Shown piece by piece: positions 45,884 through 63,793 of a DNA stretch of 64,000 nucleotides (the first letter of the stretch is position 1; the number at the start of each line of letters is the position of its first letter). The position numbers and the translations under genes are program-made. Where the stretch lies: the NCBI GenBank assembly GCA_021789155.1, contig JAJYJW010000001.1, forward strand, positions 1,473 to 65,472. Direction: 5' to 3'. The notes under the pieces were generated by a model that was not told where the DNA came from, searched no databases, and saw nothing but the letters and a program-made list of their open reading frames with translations. This DNA is from Candidatus Micrarchaeota archaeon (GTDB taxonomy: Archaea > Micrarchaeota > Micrarchaeia > Micrarchaeales > CABMGC01).

Positions 45884-46159
45884 ATGGAAAAAGCGAATAG
45901 CATAGAGGATAGGATGCAGAAATTTTCGGATTTAGTGACGAACAGGGTAGTGAAGGTATGCCCCGAATGCAGCAAGAATTGCGCATGTGATGTGGTAGCG
46001 CTAATTAGGGCTGCAATGCAGTTAGTAAAACGATGCACCATTGCCGAATTGGAAGGAAAGCACGAACGTTACGTGCTTGAAGCTGTAGTTAGCGATACAT
46101 CCGTAAGATGGACATATCGCGAGCTGTCGGGTGATAATTGGAGCATCGAAAACCAGTAA
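45884..46159 (+). CDS. hypothetical small Cys-containing protein (91 aa)
   Basis: ORF with CPECSKNCAC. No family recognised. Confidence 0.4.
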   Translation: MEKANSIEDRMQKFSDLVTNRVVKVCPECSKNCACDVVALIRAAMQLVKRCTIAELEGKHERYVLEAVVSDTSVRWTYRELSGDNWSIENQ

Positions 46160-46219: not shown

Positions 46220-47026
46220 ATGCGCTTGATAGGGCGGCATATTACCTCATCAGGAGGCATATCTGCAGTGATGGAGTATGCTGCGAAGATGGGTAGCAAT
46301 ACTGCACAAATATTTATGGGAAATCCGAGGAGCTGGAATGCCCAGATGCCCAACTGGGACAATGCGATGTTTGAGTCTTTGAAAGGCAAATATGGCATAA
46401 GCGAACTGTTCGTGCACATGCCTTATCTTCCGAATCTGGCAAGCTCAGAAGGCAGGATAATAGAATTAACGAAAGTTAGCGTTCGCACCCAGATTAAAAA
46501 ATGCAATGACATAGGAATTGAGAATCTAGTAGTGCATCTTGGAAGCACCAAAGGGCGCCCTAAAAGCGAAGGCATAGCGAACGCGGTTGCAATATTAAAA
46601 GAATACGTGCCTTTGTTTAACGGAAGAATACTGATAGAGAATGAGGCTGGGCAGAACAACAACATAGGCGCATCTTTTGAGGATCTCGCAGAAATACGAG
46701 ATAGTGTTGACGCAGACAACTTGTTTTTCTGCATAGACACGTGCCATGCATTCGCATACGGCTATGATATACGAAACCTTGACATAATAGAAGAGATTGA
46801 CGCGAAACTGGGGATGAAAAATGTAAAGGCGCTGCACTGCAACGATGCGCTGTTCGGACTGGGATCCAAAAAGGATAGACATGCCAACATCGGCTTTGGC
46901 GAGATAGGACGGGATGCGTTGAAGGCTTTTATTTGGGCAGATAAGACAAATTCCATACCAGTCATTCTTGAAACGCCGTCATCGCCATTGATAAGTGAGT
47001 CGGAGGAAATAGCGTTGATAAAGTAA
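46220..47026 (+). CDS. nfo: endonuclease IV (AP endonuclease, TIM-barrel)
   Basis: IGRHITSSGG, AQIFMGNPRSW, VVHLGS, ENEAGQ, CIDTCHAFAYGYD, LHCNDA, H.NIG.GEIG. Confidence 0.85.
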   Translation: MRLIGRHITSSGGISAVMEYAAKMGSNTAQIFMGNPRSWNAQMPNWDNAMFESLKGKYGISELFVHMPYLPNLASSEGRIIELTKVSVRTQIKKCNDIGIENLVVHLGSTKGRPKSEGIANAVAILKEYVPLFNGRILIENEAGQNNNIGASFEDLAEIRDSVDADNLFFCIDTCHAFAYGYDIRNLDIIEEIDAKLGMKNVKALHCNDALFGLGSKKDRHANIGFGEIGRDALKAFIWADKTNSIPVILETPSSPLISESEEIALIK

Positions 47027-47052
47027 ACGCTCTCTTTTTGAAGGTGGGTTTT

Positions 47053-48690
47053 ATGCTAGATGTACTTATAGATAGGATATTTGATTGGATAGCGTGTTTT
47101 TTACCTTGTTTTTGTGGGATTGGGATAGAATGCTCTGCGCTTTCGTTGCACAACGCAAATGGAACCCTGAGGTACTCGTTCCGCGGAAAAATAATACCTT
47201 CTTTTTACAACCTTTCCAGAAGCCCGAAAAATAGAAACATGTGCATAGTTGGAGAGAGCGGAAGTGGCAAATCCAACGCAGCATATAACATATTGTCAAG
47301 CTTGCGTAAGTTCGGGGCAAACGTACTCATAATAGACCCGCACGCAGAGTATGCAAAGTTCGGTAGCGATCTTGACTGCAAGGTATATGATGCTTCGATA
47401 TTCGGAACAAATTTGCTGGATCTCGATGGGTTGAGCCAGCATGAACGAACCGGCGAGGTCACTTCGTTGTTGCGTAAAATATTCAGGCTTGGCGACATAC
47501 AAAGCCATATACTTTACAAGGCACTTTCGTATACATACTATGTTTCTGAAACGAAAGGAATGATTCCCAGAATAAGCTCGCTTTGCTACGCTCTTTCAGG
47601 GCTTGCCAAGAAGTCTGGAATTTCCGAAAGAAGACAGATTGAATCACTGCGCGATAGGGTAACTATGCTTGCATCGGGATCAGGCAAAACAGTAAACGTG
47701 GAAGACTTAATTAACGCGAGCAACATATTCGTCACTTCTAGATTGCGAACAAAAGAAGCACACGCAGCATACGTGGATGGCATTCTCAGAAAAATATATT
47801 CATACATGGTAAGCAAAGGCAGATTTTCCAAACCTCTTTATATAGTGATAGACGAAGCAGAGAACGTTGTTGATTCGTCTACAGTTAGCAGGATTGCGGC
47901 AGAAGGAAGAAAATACAATGTTGGCATCGTGGCGATTTCTCAGAGAGTAAAGGCAATACCTGCAGGTTTGAGGAGCAATTCTAACATGATGTTTGCATTT
48001 TCCCAGAAAGAGCCAGAGGAGCTCAATTATATCGCAAACCTCATAGCACAAGGAAACGAGCACGAGCGATTCATAGCAGTTAAGAAAGAAATGAGGAAAC
48101 TGCGTGTGGGAAGATGCATAGTTCATGAAAGCGGAAAAGCACCCAAAAGCGTGAGGGTGTACCTTAAAACCGCAACATCACTCGATTACTCTTATGAGAT
48201 AGAGAAGCTTGCTGAGAAGGGAATAGAAAAAAGTGCGTTGAAATCTGCACTCAAGCCAGAAATGTGTGATTTTGAAGCGAATTTGGAAAAATTAACGGGC
48301 TTGGGGATTGTTAGCAGGTACGTAGATGGAAACGAGTTATGGTATATTACTGCACCAACGCATAGCGCAGAGCACGATATCAACGTGAATAGGATATGTA
48401 AAGCATTTGCCGACTCCGGGATAAGGTCTTGGATCTACAACAAGCCGTACGGTCCGGACGTTGTTGCATATTTGCATGGGAAACAGATAGCAATAGAATA
48501 CGAAACCGGAATGAAAAACATATCGGACACTGAAAAGATGATAAACGCGAGATTGGACAAGTATGCAAAGGTAGTGGTAATAAGCAAAGACACCGAATTC
48601 ATAAATAAACTGAATGTGATATCGGACAAAGTAATAAAGATAAAAATGGAGGCGCTGGCTGACACCCTCACCACCCCACAGTTCCACTAA
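47053..48690 (+). CDS. HerA/FtsK-superfamily (DUF87-type) P-loop ATPase with wHTH-like segment and C-terminal nuclease-like domain
   Basis: Walker A VGESGSGKSN, Walker B LYIVIDEAENV, GIVAISQR sensor. C-terminal LEKLTGLGIVSRYVDG (wHTH-like), then GPDVVAY..IAIEYETGMK. Start is ATG 47053 or TTG 47038. Confidence 0.7.
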   Translation: MLDVLIDRIFDWIACFLPCFCGIGIECSALSLHNANGTLRYSFRGKIIPSFYNLSRSPKNRNMCIVGESGSGKSNAAYNILSSLRKFGANVLIIDPHAEYAKFGSDLDCKVYDASIFGTNLLDLDGLSQHERTGEVTSLLRKIFRLGDIQSHILYKALSYTYYVSETKGMIPRISSLCYALSGLAKKSGISERRQIESLRDRVTMLASGSGKTVNVEDLINASNIFVTSRLRTKEAHAAYVDGILRKIYSYMVSKGRFSKPLYIVIDEAENVVDSSTVSRIAAEGRKYNVGIVAISQRVKAIPAGLRSNSNMMFAFSQKEPEELNYIANLIAQGNEHERFIAVKKEMRKLRVGRCIVHESGKAPKSVRVYLKTATSLDYSYEIEKLAEKGIEKSALKSALKPEMCDFEANLEKLTGLGIVSRYVDGNELWYITAPTHSAEHDINVNRICKAFADSGIRSWIYNKPYGPDVVAYLHGKQIAIEYETGMKNISDTEKMINARLDKYAKVVVISKDTEFINKLNVISDKVIKIKMEALADTLTTPQFH

Positions 48691-48826
48691 TCTTGTCCCT
48701 TATATAATATATGTATTTTATTTAATCCTATTTTTATCATTTAAATGAAACTATGTTGTGCATATAATACTGGAAGTGAACCCTCCTCTAAGTAAGGTTT
48801 TTAGATTAAAACACAAAAAGAGAATC

Positions 48827-49312
48827 ATGGATATTTCCATCAATCTTCTTTTTAACATACTTTCAGAAGAGAACAAGACGGGAGAAGTGCTGGACTTGGC
48901 CAATGATTTTTATCCTTCTGCGTATTCTGAGCTTTCCAAACTAGAGGAAAATACCGATGCTGCACAACAAGCAAAGAATTTCAAGAAGCTCTTGGATACG
49001 ATAAAGACAAAACGCTTCCAGAAAATACTCTTGTATGTCGCATATAACAAGCAAATAGAGGTGCACGTGCCGAAAGAGGAACAGACTCTCTACAAAGAAG
49101 CACTCACGTTAATTGGCAAACATTCACAGCAAATCAACAGCAATGAGCAAATACAAAAAACAAAAATGAAGATAACCTCTGATTTGCCCGAATTGCTTGT
49201 GCCCAACAAAGGAAAGATTGGGCCGTTCAAGCAGGATCAGGTGGTAGAACTTGCAGATATTAAAGAAGTGGAATTCCTTTCAAACAACAAACTGGCTACA
49301 ATTTTACAGTAG
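48827..49312 (+). CDS. GINS subunit-like protein (Gins51/Gins15-type candidate)
   Basis: N-terminus LLFNILSEENKTGEVLDLANDFY and C-terminal B-domain-like LPELLVPNKGKIGPFKQDQVVELADIKEVEFLSNNKLATIL. ATG 48827. Confidence 0.5.
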   Translation: MDISINLLFNILSEENKTGEVLDLANDFYPSAYSELSKLEENTDAAQQAKNFKKLLDTIKTKRFQKILLYVAYNKQIEVHVPKEEQTLYKEALTLIGKHSQQINSNEQIQKTKMKITSDLPELLVPNKGKIGPFKQDQVVELADIKEVEFLSNNKLATILQ

Positions 49313-56957: not shown

Positions 56958-57030
56958 GGGGAGTTCTGCTAGCTTGGTAGGCTTCCAGGTTCGGGTCCTG
57001 GCGACACGTGTTCAAATCACGTACTCCCCA
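56958..57030 (+). tRNA. tRNA-Pro (anticodon CGG)
   Basis: GGGGAGT/ACTCCCC+A acceptor; D loop AGCTTGGTA; anticodon arm CCAGG-TTCGGGT-CCTGG; T arm ACGTG-TTCAAAT-CACGT. Confidence 0.85.
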
Positions 57031-57064
57031 TATTGGCACAACGTCGCTAAGCGTAAAGCTTGTC

Positions 57065-57946
57065 ATGCTTATTAATGAGCTCCTTTCAAACCAAATTGAT
57101 TTCATGTTGGCTAGTACGCGCGAGCAGGGTCTTTCGGTTCGCAATCAAACTGCGCTATTCAAGAGTGCACTAATGGGAAATACGGACGTTGCGATAACTA
57201 GCATATCAAAATTGTACAGGGACATGACTGATAGCTATTTTGGCTACGACGCCCAGGTGGAGAAATTAAGTGGCGGTGCGCCTAGCAGCATGGCAATACC
57301 TCTGCTTAATGCAATAAGCGACGTTTATGGCAAACTGAGCCGCATTCAGAAAGACGCAGTCCTCAACCAGACTTTGGAAATTTTGGATAAATATGATTTT
57401 TGGATTGTCAACGGCCCAATGGGCTCGGGCCATACAAGCACTATAAGGAATCCCCAGTACTTAGCCGAAATATGCATGCTATCCAATAACATGTACTGGC
57501 CAGGCCTTGATGAGGGTAGGATAATAATCACAATGCATGGCGGAAGCTGGCAGGCTATAAAGGAAGATCTTATAACCAAATACGGCTTCTTTGACAGGTC
57601 TGAGGCAAAAGACGCGGAAGGACATCCAATAGGCAGACCCAAAATATACAGTGACTTTCTTGTGGCGTATGCTTTCTTGCGTAAAGACATATCCAATTTC
57701 GGGGAAGAATTCGCGTCTGCGATAAACAAGAACTTCCTTGATCAGGTAATCACCGCGATAGTAAAACTGGAACTTCATAATGCGAAGACCCCAAAAGAGA
57801 TAGCGAAGCGCCTTTCAGCACTTGAGGATTTGCTTCCGGAATCATTGCACGCAAAACTCGAAAGCGCAGCATATACGGAAGGCTGGGTAGATGCGTATAA
57901 CTTTGCCACTGACAAGTTCCTTTACTACAGCAAGATGCGCTTGTAA
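57065..57946 (+). CDS. hypothetical protein (294 aa) upstream of the HerA-like ATPase
   Basis: Long ORF. ATG 57065 chosen because track start 57008 overlaps tRNA-Pro. No motif recognised. Confidence 0.5.
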   Translation: MLINELLSNQIDFMLASTREQGLSVRNQTALFKSALMGNTDVAITSISKLYRDMTDSYFGYDAQVEKLSGGAPSSMAIPLLNAISDVYGKLSRIQKDAVLNQTLEILDKYDFWIVNGPMGSGHTSTIRNPQYLAEICMLSNNMYWPGLDEGRIIITMHGGSWQAIKEDLITKYGFFDRSEAKDAEGHPIGRPKIYSDFLVAYAFLRKDISNFGEEFASAINKNFLDQVITAIVKLELHNAKTPKEIAKRLSALEDLLPESLHAKLESAAYTEGWVDAYNFATDKFLYYSKMRL

Positions 57947-57995: not shown

Positions 57996-59561
57996 GTGCG
58001 TATGAGTAATATGCGGGTTGAGCTTTCCAGCAACATGTCTCTTGATTTGCAGAGCGTTCTTACCGGCAGGTGCTGCGTTATCGGACAAAGCGGAAGCGGC
58101 AAATCGTATCTTGTCGGAGTTATAGCCGAAGAGCTATCCAAGGCACAGCGCTCGTTCTTGATAGTCGATACCGAAGGCGAATACAAAGCCCTGAAGGGGA
58201 TAGCAAAAGTAATAACTATCGGTGCGGAAGATGCTGATTTAGGTTTGGACGTAGATTACGTTAACACCTTAACGCAGGCAATGGAATTCGGTATGCCCAT
58301 AGTCCTTGACGTGTCAGAAGTCGCAAACAAGCAAGAGTACGTTTACGGAGTTTTAGAAAAGCTGTATTCAATAGAAGAAACCGCCAGGAAACCGTTTCTA
58401 GTGATAATAGAGGAAGCTGATACTTTCGTGCCGCAGATAACCAAACAAAAGATAAACATAATAGAGGAGATAAGCGTGCGTGGCAGAAAGCGCGGCATAG
58501 GGCTGATGGTCGCTACACAAAGGCCTGCAAACATAAGCAAGAACGTGCTTGCGCAATGTTCCTATGGGTTCATAGGAAAGCTAACAATAGAGAACGACAT
58601 CAACGCGGTGAAAACCCTTTTGGAAGACAAGGTGCTGCTGTCAGAAGTGTCAAAACTAGGAACAGGCGAATTCATACCCTTCGGTCAGGCAGGCGCTGAA
58701 AAGTTCAGGGTAAAGCAACGAACTGCAAAGCATTACGGCGCAACCCCTTCATTAGGAGAAGTGTCCACTTCCAAGGACCTTTCCACAATAATAAACGAAC
58801 TAAAAGGATCGTCAAAGAATCAATCTGCCAAAATGCAGAGTGTATCTCACAGCATCTACACCCTCGATCAAACCAAAACGAACGAAGAGCTAATTAAAAA
58901 AGCGGGGGATCTGGCGAAGAAGCAGTTCATGTTCTTCGGAAAGCCGACTGAATCGGTGGAGAGCGTAAAGGAGAAATACCTGCCATTAGTACTTTTGGAA
59001 GTAAGAATTCCGACTGGAAAACGCAATGAATACGCTGAATCGAAAGCGTTGATAAGCTCGAAATCATCATTCGTGAAACTGGGCAAAAACGAAATACTTC
59101 AAATGAATTCGCCGCGAGTGGCTACTCTTTCCGATGACGACATAGACCTGCTGGAATTTGTTAGGAAGAAGCGCAACACAGAGTTCGCAGATATAGCGAA
59201 ACATTTGGAGATCAGCTCTGCACTGGCGACAAGCAGGGTCAGGAAGCTCGAGAAAGGCTCATTGCTCGCAGTCAAAAACAACACTGTCTCCGCAGTAAAT
59301 TATGAGAAGATGCTTAACGAGAATAATCTGAATGTAGTACAAAAATCAGCGCGAATAGGTTCGGCCGAATTGGCGTGCACGCCACCCGACAAGAAAGAAG
59401 CAAGGAAACTATTCAGGTATATTTTTCCAACTGCGCAGATTACCGCTGCCAAGATAATATATGTGCCATACAACGAGATAACATTAAGGAGCAAGAATAG
59501 AGTGAGAATATTCGCGATAGATTCCGTGTTTGGAAAAGAGATTAACATCAATGCGTTATGA
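57996..59561 (+). CDS. HerA/FtsK-superfamily (DUF87-type) P-loop ATPase with C-terminal wHTH-like and beta-rich extensions
   Basis: Walker A VIGQSGSGKSY, Walker B FLVIIEEADTF, GLMVATQRPANIS. C-terminal DIDLLEFVRKKRNTEFADIAKHLEISSALATSRVRKLEKGSLL (wHTH-like). Confidence 0.7.
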   Translation: MRMSNMRVELSSNMSLDLQSVLTGRCCVIGQSGSGKSYLVGVIAEELSKAQRSFLIVDTEGEYKALKGIAKVITIGAEDADLGLDVDYVNTLTQAMEFGMPIVLDVSEVANKQEYVYGVLEKLYSIEETARKPFLVIIEEADTFVPQITKQKINIIEEISVRGRKRGIGLMVATQRPANISKNVLAQCSYGFIGKLTIENDINAVKTLLEDKVLLSEVSKLGTGEFIPFGQAGAEKFRVKQRTAKHYGATPSLGEVSTSKDLSTIINELKGSSKNQSAKMQSVSHSIYTLDQTKTNEELIKKAGDLAKKQFMFFGKPTESVESVKEKYLPLVLLEVRIPTGKRNEYAESKALISSKSSFVKLGKNEILQMNSPRVATLSDDDIDLLEFVRKKRNTEFADIAKHLEISSALATSRVRKLEKGSLLAVKNNTVSAVNYEKMLNENNLNVVQKSARIGSAELACTPPDKKEARKLFRYIFPTAQITAAKIIYVPYNEITLRSKNRVRIFAIDSVFGKEININAL

Positions 59562-62794: not shown

Positions 62795-63793
62795 ATGTTT
62801 GAAATACGGAAAATTATCATGAGCGATGCACGTTTGGAGCTTGCATACAAATATCCGTTCCTTCAATCGTCAAAAGAGCTCCTAGCAACCATGAACGTAA
62901 GCAAAATAGAAAGCAAACACCTTAACGCAGCGCTAATTCGAGTAAACGAAGCCATGAAAAGCGGCATAGTGGAATTCACGAAATCTCAAACGGAATCCAT
63001 ACAGGAATTGTATTTGATAAGCTACGTCTATTCTAGAATGTTGGTCAGCGCAACTGCAAGCATGCGTTCCGCTTATTCAATAATCGAGGCGTATGCCATG
63101 TCCGAAGCAAATAGAGCATGCACTGCCCTTGAATCTGAGAGCATTGAGAATTTGAAAAACGTATGTGATCAGATGGGATTAAGCGTGTCTGCGAATTCCC
63201 AGAGTTTTTCAATACCGTTTCACGAATACATAAAGTTTTCAACAACCAACCCCATGGTCTCGTTGGTATTCCAGAAACTCGGTGCTGGCCAGGTTATAAT
63301 GGATAAAACCCAGCTGATGAAATTCATGAGATATGCGTTTTTCTCTGTGATTGCAAAAGGGCTTCCTATTGAGGTCAAAACTATACCTAAAGAGGTTCTG
63401 GGATTGACAGGAAAAGTGGATATTAGCCAATTCGTGAAGAAGAGCGAAAGAACAACTGGTAGGAATACTACGGGGTGGATAGAACGCCTGCTCAACACAC
63501 CCCTTCCAGATTTCAGGCACAGGTTGGTAAACCTAATACTCGCGCCTTATCTGGTTAACGTAAGGAATCTGCAAATAGACGAAGCGGTAAGCATAATAAA
63601 CGAATACATAGAAAGATGCAAGAGAATAAATCCTGATACTAACGTAAATCCAGTATACATACGCTACCAATGTAACTACGCGAAACGGAGGGGCTTAAAA
63701 CCATATTCCCTTGCGAGTGCGCGAGAACTAATGGCAGGCTCGATAGATTTTGATTATATAGGAGGAGAAACAAAAGAGAAAAAAGATGAATGA
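62795..63793 (+). CDS. priL: DNA primase large (regulatory) subunit PriL-like protein
   Basis: N-terminus ARLELAYKYPFLQSSKELL, YVYSRMLVS..., and C-terminal GWIERLLNTPLPDFRHRLVNLILAPYLVNVRNLQIDEAVSIINEYIERC resemble archaeal PriL as I recall it. Confidence 0.55.
   Translation: MFEIRKIIMSDARLELAYKYPFLQSSKELLATMNVSKIESKHLNAALIRVNEAMKSGIVEFTKSQTESIQELYLISYVYSRMLVSATASMRSAYSIIEAYAMSEANRACTALESESIENLKNVCDQMGLSVSANSQSFSIPFHEYIKFSTTNPMVSLVFQKLGAGQVIMDKTQLMKFMRYAFFSVIAKGLPIEVKTIPKEVLGLTGKVDISQFVKKSERTTGRNTTGWIERLLNTPLPDFRHRLVNLILAPYLVNVRNLQIDEAVSIINEYIERCKRINPDTNVNPVYIRYQCNYAKRRGLKPYSLASARELMAGSIDFDYIGGETKEKKDE

Follow-up and report, generated by a model that had tools for sequence, protein, structure and literature searches.

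A HerA-clade ATPase fused to a winged helix and a predicted nuclease domain is linked to endonuclease IV in Micrarchaeota

A stretch of 64,000 nucleotides (nt) from a Candidatus Micrarchaeota archaeon (assembly GCA_021789155.1, contig JAJYJW010000001.1), referred to here as the window, carries downstream of nfo, the gene for deoxyribonuclease/endonuclease IV (Endo IV), an open reading frame (ORF) whose product joins in one chain a HerA-clade ATPase, a winged helix and a domain with the predicted fold of restriction endonucleases (Table 1). This domain architecture can be assigned with high confidence. Relatives are found across the Micrarchaeota, in most cases with nfo upstream, and the gene is best explained as a vertically inherited housekeeping gene of this phylum. 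The reading that we favour is that of a chromosomal single-chain DNA translocase-nuclease that would act in genome maintenance together with Endo IV; as worded here, with its mechanism, it stands evenly balanced between right and wrong. The analysis followed up an earlier note on this ORF, made by a model from the sequence of the window.

The Walker A, Walker B and ISQR motifs that the earlier note had described were all found in their places in the ATPase core, where a helical insert of about 190 residues separates Walker A from Walker B. Their conservation was evaluated in 32 homologues at 32-41% identity. In Walker A, residues G67, S69, G70, G72, K73 and S74 are invariant; in Walker B, E268 is invariant and D267 is conserved in at least 90% of the sequences; and further downstream E284, G285, R286, K287, Y288 and Q297 do not vary, R286 being a candidate arginine finger. 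Given this invariance, an active ATPase is to be expected. The Walker motifs and the downstream Arg and Gln in a RecA-like core place the protein in the FtsK-HerA superfamily, within the HerA clade. The Pfam models matched above their cutoffs were DUF87, the HerA central domain (4.8e-11, 43.6 bits, cutoff 23.2), and AAA_10 (4.5e-10); FtsK_SpoIIIE (PF01580; 16.9 bits vs a cutoff of 24), TraG and other models stayed below theirs. When the profile of the 32-member family was compared with PDB sequences, HerA proteins came out on top (3e-19 to 4e-17; HerA 4d2i at 6.4e-19, Thermococcus kodakarensis HerA at 6e-18), and DptH, TdpA, STIV B204, VirB4 (6e-6) and TrwB (5e-4) followed below them. A full-length monomer model was obtained with AlphaFold2 (AF2), with a predicted local distance difference test (pLDDT) score of 89.7 and a predicted template modelling (pTM) score of 0.85. 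Its Foldseek neighbours were HerA 4d2i (4.9e-16), the C-domain of DndH (8.4e-16), VirB4 (4e-13), TdpA, the defence HerAs SIR2-HerA and DUF4297-HerA, and TrwB; all of them are ring DNA translocases, and the close ones are hexamers.

The protein had been introduced as a HerA/FtsK-type ATPase, a label of which the HerA part stands and the FtsK part does not. FtsK/SpoIIIE proper was rejected on the sub-cutoff PF01580 score: a winged helix does come after the motor, yet the motor is of the HerA clade. Canonical HerA was rejected as well. The HAS barrel is absent, only 55 residues forming a helix and one beta-hairpin precede the ATPase, and HerA 4d2i is aligned from chain residue 112 onwards. The NCBIfam equivalog models are far below cutoff (NF040937, 35.1 bits vs 800; NF040819, 30.4 vs 970), and a canonical operon with nurA, mre11 and rad50 was found neither in the window neighbourhood of the gene nor among the conserved neighbours of 80 related loci described below. 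The best NCBIfam match is the DNA-import ATPase CedD (3.9e-19), at 68.7 bits vs a cutoff of 600. CedD combines a transmembrane segment with a VirB4-like N-terminal domain (PMC11868833); both are absent here, and with the sub-cutoff score this identity was also discarded.

The C-terminal 174 residues (372-545) were modelled separately with AF2 from a 32-sequence alignment (pLDDT 92.8, pTM 0.87). A winged-helix-like stretch had been noticed before, and the segment LEKLTGLGIVSRYVDGNELWYI (residues 411-432) does lie inside a modelled winged helix, in which a bundle of three helices (residues 380-386, 393-399 and 407-416) is followed by a beta-hairpin wing (420-425 and 428-433). In Foldseek this part matches the SmtB, ArsR, MarR and TubR regulators. 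The domain that follows is modelled with the topology alpha-beta-beta-beta-alpha-beta plus extra elements, its core consisting of a helix (439-454), three strands (458-461, 470-474 and 477-484), a helix (490-501) and a last strand (506-511). Its closest Foldseek matches in the PDB were HindIII (6.7e-4), FokI (7.1e-4), the small subunit of BspD6I (2e-3; template modelling (TM) score 0.43) and Bax1 (2.4e-3), with weaker ones to Hje and Hjc (about 2-7e-2), Can2 and RecU; in a viral structure library, restriction endonucleases, VRR-NUC domains and one Holliday junction resolvase were matched. As a comparison made with a model, this list of nucleases is coherent despite its modest E-values. Sequence searches with the C-terminus were insignificant: Pfam gave AHJR-like at 0.021 in 3 of the 32 members and Hjc at 0.12, no family covering the domain; a profile search of PDB sequences gave a weak match to the RPA32 winged helix alone (E 0.077); and PHROGs gave nothing. 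The fold assignment therefore comes from the AF2 model and Foldseek. The nuclease-like C-terminus had been staked on nuclease-fold similarity and on conservation of its catalytic-type residues, and both were found. Within the restriction-endonuclease fold, this domain stands as a narrow and unclassified branch.

Conservation in this domain was followed in the Micrarchaeota family of 32 homologues and in 140 representatives, a set clustered at 50% identity and drawn from carriers of the winged-helix-nuclease module. No variation is seen in the Micrarchaeota family at H441, G467-P468-D469, A480, E482-Y-E484-T-G486 and R500, and E440 and D442 are conserved in at least 90% of its sequences. Across the 140 representatives, the most distant tier included, H441, P468, D469, E482, E484, T485 and G486 are essentially invariant (D469 in 133/133 of those having a residue in that column), and E440 is conserved in tiers 1 and 2. 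The acidic residues expected of a PD-(D/E)xK nuclease on alpha-1, beta-2 and beta-3 are thus present as E440, D469 and E482. The putative site motif is E-H…PD…E-x-E and not (D/E)-x-K. In the stretches GPDVVAY (residues 467-473) and IAIEYETGMK (479-488), a D...E-x-E...K spacing had been recognized in the earlier note; D469, E482 and E484 proved invariant, and K488, four residues past E484, is common but varies within the Micrarchaeota family (K, N or neither). An hhalign comparison with a Sulfolobus Hjc sequence, to be taken as a lead only, paired D469 with D42, E482 with E55 and E484 with the catalytic K57 (probability 23%, E 9e-4).

The replacement of the canonical Lys of (D/E)xK by Glu could mean that the domain is catalytically dead and serves in DNA binding or oligomerisation only, an alternative orthogonal to the others considered below. 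Inactivated PD-(D/E)xK domains exist. BamHI, on the other hand, is an active enzyme with Glu at the canonical Lys position. In the present family, 140 divergent representatives belonging to several architectures show no variation in the three acidic residues and the His that occupy the canonical places on alpha-1, beta-2 and beta-3. Such invariance is the pattern of an active site and suggests nuclease activity, so that loss of catalysis seems improbable to us.

The family was then delimited by searches. A word-indexed search returned more than 120 clusters (35-44% identity, 490-590 residues), of which the named ones are Micrarchaeota or 'Marsarchaeota' metagenome-assembled genomes (MAGs), and a scan of GTDB species genomes gave 102 relatives, from which 80 loci were retrieved. 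Linkage was counted at the ORF level in these 80 species loci and by tblastn in 84 loci, i.e. the 80 and four earlier ones, at least three of which duplicate loci of the scan (L001=L020, L002=L017, L003=L053). By tblastn, nfo is present in 76/84 loci, always on the strand of the ATPase gene and upstream of it in 75; at the ORF level, 71 of the 80 species loci have it 5' of the ATPase gene in the same orientation. Of these, 41 have it directly adjacent, a term used for gaps of at most 150 nt (observed range -17 to 113 nt), and in 3 the gap measures 150-600 nt. Eight species loci have no nfo, three of them with less than 450 nt of upstream sequence. The next best neighbour is found in 37/80 loci and every remaining gene family in 14 or fewer. 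As conserved partners, the GINS-like, L44e and eIF2alpha genes of the window were rejected (0/84 loci), and so was PCNA (2/84). Since the neighbours are otherwise unconserved, the nfo-ATPase pair has been maintained despite a near-complete loss of synteny. Pairwise distances of the ATPase protein correlate with those of Endo IV (Mantel r 0.68, 66 loci, with 0/2000 permutations reaching this r), which points to a shared vertical history or to joint transfer. The ATPase had been called an orphan, a description that does not fit a gene with a conserved partner in 71 species loci; nor does that of a stand-alone enzyme, the family being conserved across Micrarchaeota and tied to a gene that had been treated as incidental.

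Some particularities of these loci may be mentioned. The neighbour present in 37/80 Micrarchaeota loci is a helical protein of about 190 residues (consensus PAWMLCEDIL…ELxLEAID…), whose gene precedes nfo in the same orientation and in many cases extends 4 nt past the nfo start (L050:2634-3209, L063:4271-4846, L020:3157-3720 and 34 other loci). It suggests a three-gene array of this protein, nfo and the ATPase. It is absent from the window, has no Pfam match, and gave only designed helical repeat proteins in the PDB. A family of about 450 residues with a hint of an AsnC/HTH_24-type helix-turn-helix (cluster 8, representative L038:9917-11332) is inserted in the same orientation, after nfo and before the ATPase gene, in L043, L045, L049, L051, L055 and L066; it also occurs elsewhere in other loci and so may be mobile. 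Two loci with the nfo-ATPase pair, L039 and L065, are labelled 'Candidatus Saccharimonadales bacterium' and 'bacterium' and are probably mis-binned or mislabelled Micrarchaeota contigs. Two copies each were found in the MAGs MAS1.bin37 (L054, L063) and SRP226684_co1_18 (L072, L075), which suggests mixed bins or duplication.

The winged-helix-nuclease module was also searched for on its own. An exhaustive HMMER search of 1.84 billion representatives gave 160 proteins at E <=1e-3. All 67 carriers of at least 450 residues contain a HerA-type ATPase, as do 11 of the 17 with 260-450 residues, the remaining 6 belonging to the most distant tier; 53 carriers shorter than 260 residues have no ATPase. 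Many of the short ATPase-less carriers probably represent fragments of genes, while some others may be proteins that stand alone. Besides the Micrarchaeota family, the carriers comprise a sister family of 570-600 residues, forms of 630-810 residues and one TraC/VirB4-like ATPase of 1051 residues. The module is thus a recurrent C-terminal attachment of the HerA-type class of motors. The sister family (L085:6001-7779, L088:6001-7770) keeps ATPase, winged helix and nuclease, with the motif SIEHE…GPD…EYETGxK, and is chromosomal; the genes around it, DUF92 / gene / UbiA / rps2-rpoN-rps9-rpl13, are conserved, and radA is close by in L088. Since it is chromosomal too, two lineages or more seem to use the architecture for housekeeping, whereas only the Micrarchaeota clade has the link to Endo IV. 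The TraC/VirB4-like ATPase (L086:8001-11156) comes from Candidatus Burarchaeum australiense and ends in the module (residues 905-1034). Its locus is an integrase-bearing type IV secretion system (T4SS) element with TrbC, a T4SS pilin, methyltransferases and a ResIII restriction enzyme.

The architecture, the conservation of the motifs, the linkage and co-inheritance with nfo and the absence from mobile elements all enter the reading that we prefer. By analogy with HerA, VirB4 and TrwB, the ATPase would form a hexameric ring and translocate DNA through the pore; as the fusion suggests, six winged-helix-nuclease arms would all sit on the same side of the ring, by the entry or exit of the DNA. 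The motor might feed DNA to the nuclease, or the nuclease might cut DNA gripped by the winged helix, and neighbouring nuclease domains may pair, as in FokI and Hjc. In this scheme Endo IV would first cut the strand on the 5' side of an abasic or oxidised site, or free broken ends of 3'-blocking groups; such nicks and breaks would next serve as loading points for the motor-nuclease, and ATP-driven translocation would lead to excision or end resection, the protein being a fused functional analogue of HerA-NurA or XPB-Bax1. It is the nfo linkage that suggests a role in the Endo IV pathway. A genome-maintenance role linked to Endo IV seems to us, by a modest measure, the probable one, while the specific order of events with Endo IV is tentative and rather doubtful. 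Of the functions offered in the earlier note, repair is the one favoured; defence and plasmid processing are disfavoured by the co-inheritance with nfo, by neighbours that have no PADLOC match and by the absence of close relatives from IMG/VR, PLSDB and phage genomes.

Several observations weigh against this reading. ATPase and nuclease activity are inferred for every member of the family, and so are the hexamer and co-transcription. For the nuclease domain, Foldseek gave modest E-values (about 1e-3, at a TM of about 0.4), in part since the query held two domains, and the signature Lys expected two residues past the acidic residue of beta-3 is absent, with the invariant E484 in its place. The sister family, with the same architecture, does not adjoin nfo. 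Within the Micrarchaeota, inserted genes split nfo from the ATPase gene in 27 loci; they are heterogeneous and mostly on the opposite strand, so that co-transcription is not universal. The link to nfo is limited to one phylum, and part of it could be inherited gene order, though the flanking synteny is almost gone. Finally, the window encodes a second HerA-clade ATPase, and the protein need not be the resection motor of the cell.

This second ATPase (57996-59561, + strand, 521 residues) is also compact, with DUF87 at its extreme N-terminus and no HAS barrel; it has a MarR/HTH_24-type winged helix near residues 380-430, and its similarity to the protein studied here is local only. Directly 5' of it lies an ORF of 312 residues (57008-57946, +), which was checked as a NurA candidate and gave no Pfam match even at E up to 1 and no PDB sequence match. 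The two may be another motor-partner pair, and with them in the window a replacement of HerA-NurA by the nfo-linked protein cannot be claimed.

Among other explanations, the one that survives best, although we regard it as unlikely, is a segregation or junction-processing machine working apart from Endo IV, in which an FtsK-like pump with a DNA-reading winged helix and an Hjc-like nuclease would resolve Holliday junctions or stalled forks. A motor followed by a winged helix recalls FtsK, whose gamma domain reads DNA; the Holliday junction resolvases Hje, Hjc and RecU are among the fold matches, and AHJR-like and Hjc appear weakly in Pfam in a few members; the gene is conserved and housekeeping-like, and PCNA and GINS-like genes are near it in the window. 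Neither of these two neighbours is conserved in the 84 loci, however, the FtsK_SpoIIIE model does not reach its cutoff, type II restriction enzymes outscore the resolvases in Foldseek, and such a role would leave the strong linkage to nfo unexplained.

An anti-virus or anti-plasmid defence effector, in which the HerA-type motor would drive a restriction-like nuclease against foreign DNA, is less probable still. The best PADLOC matches of the protein are mad8 (1.2e-19) and several HerA defence models, the defence motors DndH (C-domain), TdpA, SIR2-HerA and DUF4297-HerA are structural neighbours, and the nuclease fold is nearest to type II and IIS restriction enzymes. The PADLOC matches, however, span the generic ATPase core only. 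The ten neighbouring proteins have no PADLOC match, and no defence gene, methyltransferase or mobile gene is nearby; MADS, to which mad8 belongs, and other PADLOC systems were rejected, the co-occurring system genes being absent from these ten neighbours. In IMG/VR, PLSDB and phage genomes only matches to the ATPase core were found; they are short, with 23-40% identity, and all end outside the nuclease domain. A gene that is phylum-wide, syntenic beside a repair gene and co-evolving is the opposite of patchy defence islands, and without a modification partner an unregulated nuclease would endanger the DNA of the cell itself.

Equally improbable in our view is a motor for DNA transfer, uptake or scavenging, whose nuclease would cut incoming DNA for recombination or nucleotide salvage in a symbiont unable to make nucleotides itself. 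DPANN archaea depend on hosts. CedD, a DNA-import ATPase, is the best NCBIfam match, VirB4 and TrwB are structural neighbours, and the winged-helix-nuclease module is found on the ATPase of the Candidatus Burarchaeum T4SS element. Against this, the CedD score is far under its cutoff and the CedD-specific parts are missing, no conserved membrane, pilin or channel gene appears among the neighbours in the 80 loci, and the family profile is much nearer to HerA (1e-19) than to VirB4. That the module is a DNA-cutting attachment of DPANN DNA-pumping ATPases, the Micrarchaeota protein being a cytoplasmic motor that imports host-derived DNA and, with Endo IV, cuts it into recombination substrates or salvageable nucleotides, is the least probable proposal of all; if true, nothing described so far would match such an apparatus for acquiring or scavenging DNA.

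The putative translocase-nuclease can be compared with known systems. There is precedent for HerA-clade motors working with partner nucleases in the solved HerA-NurA, DUF4297-HerA and TdpAB. HerA-NurA, which carries out archaeal end resection, also joins a HerA-clade core with a nuclease in a chromosomal genome-maintenance context. It differs in that NurA is a separate, RNase H-like protein, while the nuclease described here is in the same chain and has a restriction-endonuclease fold, and in that the present protein has no HAS barrel, no NurA, Mre11 or Rad50 neighbours, and Endo IV as its partner gene. DUF4297-HerA (PMC11291478), TdpAB and DndFGH/DptH share a HerA-clade motor with a nuclease and are structural neighbours; they are two-protein systems in variable defence loci, in contrast to one chain encoded phylum-wide beside a repair gene. 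In XPB-Bax1, of archaeal excision repair, a translocase is likewise coupled to a restriction-endonuclease-fold nuclease (Bax1, a fold match as given above); XPB, however, is a superfamily 2 helicase and not a ring P-loop pump, and the two are separate proteins. With the domains of FokI, HindIII, BspD6I and BamHI type, the nuclease shares the alpha-beta-beta-beta-alpha-beta core with acidic residues on alpha-1, beta-2 and beta-3, and with FokI also the joining of winged-helix-type recognition domains to a cleavage domain. Unlike restriction endonucleases, to which it has no detectable sequence similarity, it has an invariant His after the alpha-1 Glu, is attached to a motor and has no methyltransferase partner. 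CedD/CedB and the VirB4-type DNA-transfer ATPases belong to the same superfamily, and the module also occurs on a TraC/VirB4-like ATPase; the transmembrane segment, the VirB4-like N-domain and channel or pilin neighbours are what the present protein does not have.

The features of the gene and its surroundings are collected in Table 1. The ORF was called by machine from a TTG at 47038; the ATG at 47053, with a GGTG Shine-Dalgarno-like motif about 7 nt 5' of it, is the preferred start. A public protein (P0001) is identical to the product over exactly 545 residues, with the same start, and is carried by metagenome contigs of 146-158 kb. The GC content of the gene (0.426) is close to the 0.44 of the window. 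The N-terminus MLDVLIDRIFDWIACFLPCFCGIGI (residues 1-22, window 47053-47120) is unusually hydrophobic and Cys-rich, and was modelled as a low-confidence helix (pLDDT 58-66); relatives begin with short basic sequences. The identity of nfo is given by Pfam AP_endonuc_2 (1.5e-39) and NCBIfam TIGR00587 (225.6 bits, cutoff 129.65). With 26 nt between the two genes, leaving no room for a promoter, and a ribosome-binding motif, co-transcription of nfo and the ATPase gene in the window is suggested, and the transcription unit likely ends in the AT-rich spacer downstream. The neighbours were as the earlier note had them, nfo on one side, a GINS-like gene on the other and no NurA, Mre11 or Rad50, with the reservation that the GINS-like match is weak: the Sld5/GINS-like ORF (probable ATG at 48827) has an E-value of 4.2e-4 and 20.9 bits, under the Pfam cutoff of 22.3. 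The public annotation has a gene of 161 residues at this position. The wider neighbours are archaeal housekeeping genes (pyrophosphatase, PCNA, L44e, eIF2alpha, PAC2). Just 5' of nfo, an ORF of 91 residues with a CPECSKNCAC motif (45884-46159, +) appears as a gene in the public annotation; neither a family match nor, among the 84 related loci, a homologue was found for it. The end of the window carries an ORF of 332 residues with a PriX (primase X) domain (62795-63793, +; 3.9e-12).

Table 1. Features of the nfo-ATPase region, in window coordinates (aa, amino acid residues of the ATPase-nuclease).
Feature	Position	Strand	Basis or remark
nfo (deoxyribonuclease/endonuclease IV), upstream partner	46220..47026	+	AP_endonuc_2 and TIGR00587
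Spacer from nfo stop to ATG, 26 nt	47027..47052	+	GGTG Shine-Dalgarno-like motif; sequence reading
Whole ORF, 545 aa and stop	47053..48690	+	HerA-clade ATPase, winged helix and predicted restriction-endonuclease-fold nuclease in one chain
N-terminal helix (aa 2-16) and long beta-hairpin (aa 22-53)	47053..47217	+	AF2 secondary structure
HerA-clade RecA-like ATPase core, aa 56-372	47218..48168	+	Pfam, profile vs PDB, Foldseek
Walker A GESGSGKS, aa 67-74	47251..47274	+	Motif read
Walker B IVIDEAE, aa 264-270	47842..47862	+	Motif read
AEGRKYNVG, aa 283-291, and ISQR sensor, aa 295-298	47899..47946	+	Motif read
Winged helix (three helices and beta-hairpin wing), aa 378-433	48184..48351	+	AF2 and Foldseek
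Predicted restriction-endonuclease-fold (PD-(D/E)xK-like) domain, aa 436-540	48358..48672	+	AF2 and Foldseek
Putative site, E440-H441-D442, start of helix alpha-1	48370..48378	+	H441 invariant in all tiers
Putative site, P468-D469, start of strand beta-2 ('PD' motif)	48454..48459	+	Alignment
Putative site, E482-Y483-E484, strand beta-3	48496..48504	+	E482 and E484 invariant
AT-rich spacer with T-tracts and TATA-like boxes	48691..48826	+	Sequence reading

DPANN archaea such as the Micrarchaeota have very small genomes, from which much of the usual repair and recombination repertoire has been reported missing (PMC8407392). In this phylum of reduced genomes, a large gene has been retained and stays linked to that of Endo IV. 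A full-text literature search found no paper on the family, the fusion or the nfo-HerA linkage, although an earlier brief mention is possible. The combination of a motor with a nuclease is familiar; what is new is the single-chain form across a phylum, the tight coupling to Endo IV and the unclassified ExE nuclease family. If the pair cooperates, the theme of a HerA-clade ATPase combined with a nuclease, represented in repair by HerA-NurA and in defence by DUF4297-HerA and TdpAB, would be extended to an enzyme made of one chain. The pair would then also constitute a previously unseen route by which the incision of apurinic/apyrimidinic sites or strand breaks is coupled to ATP-driven excision or resection.

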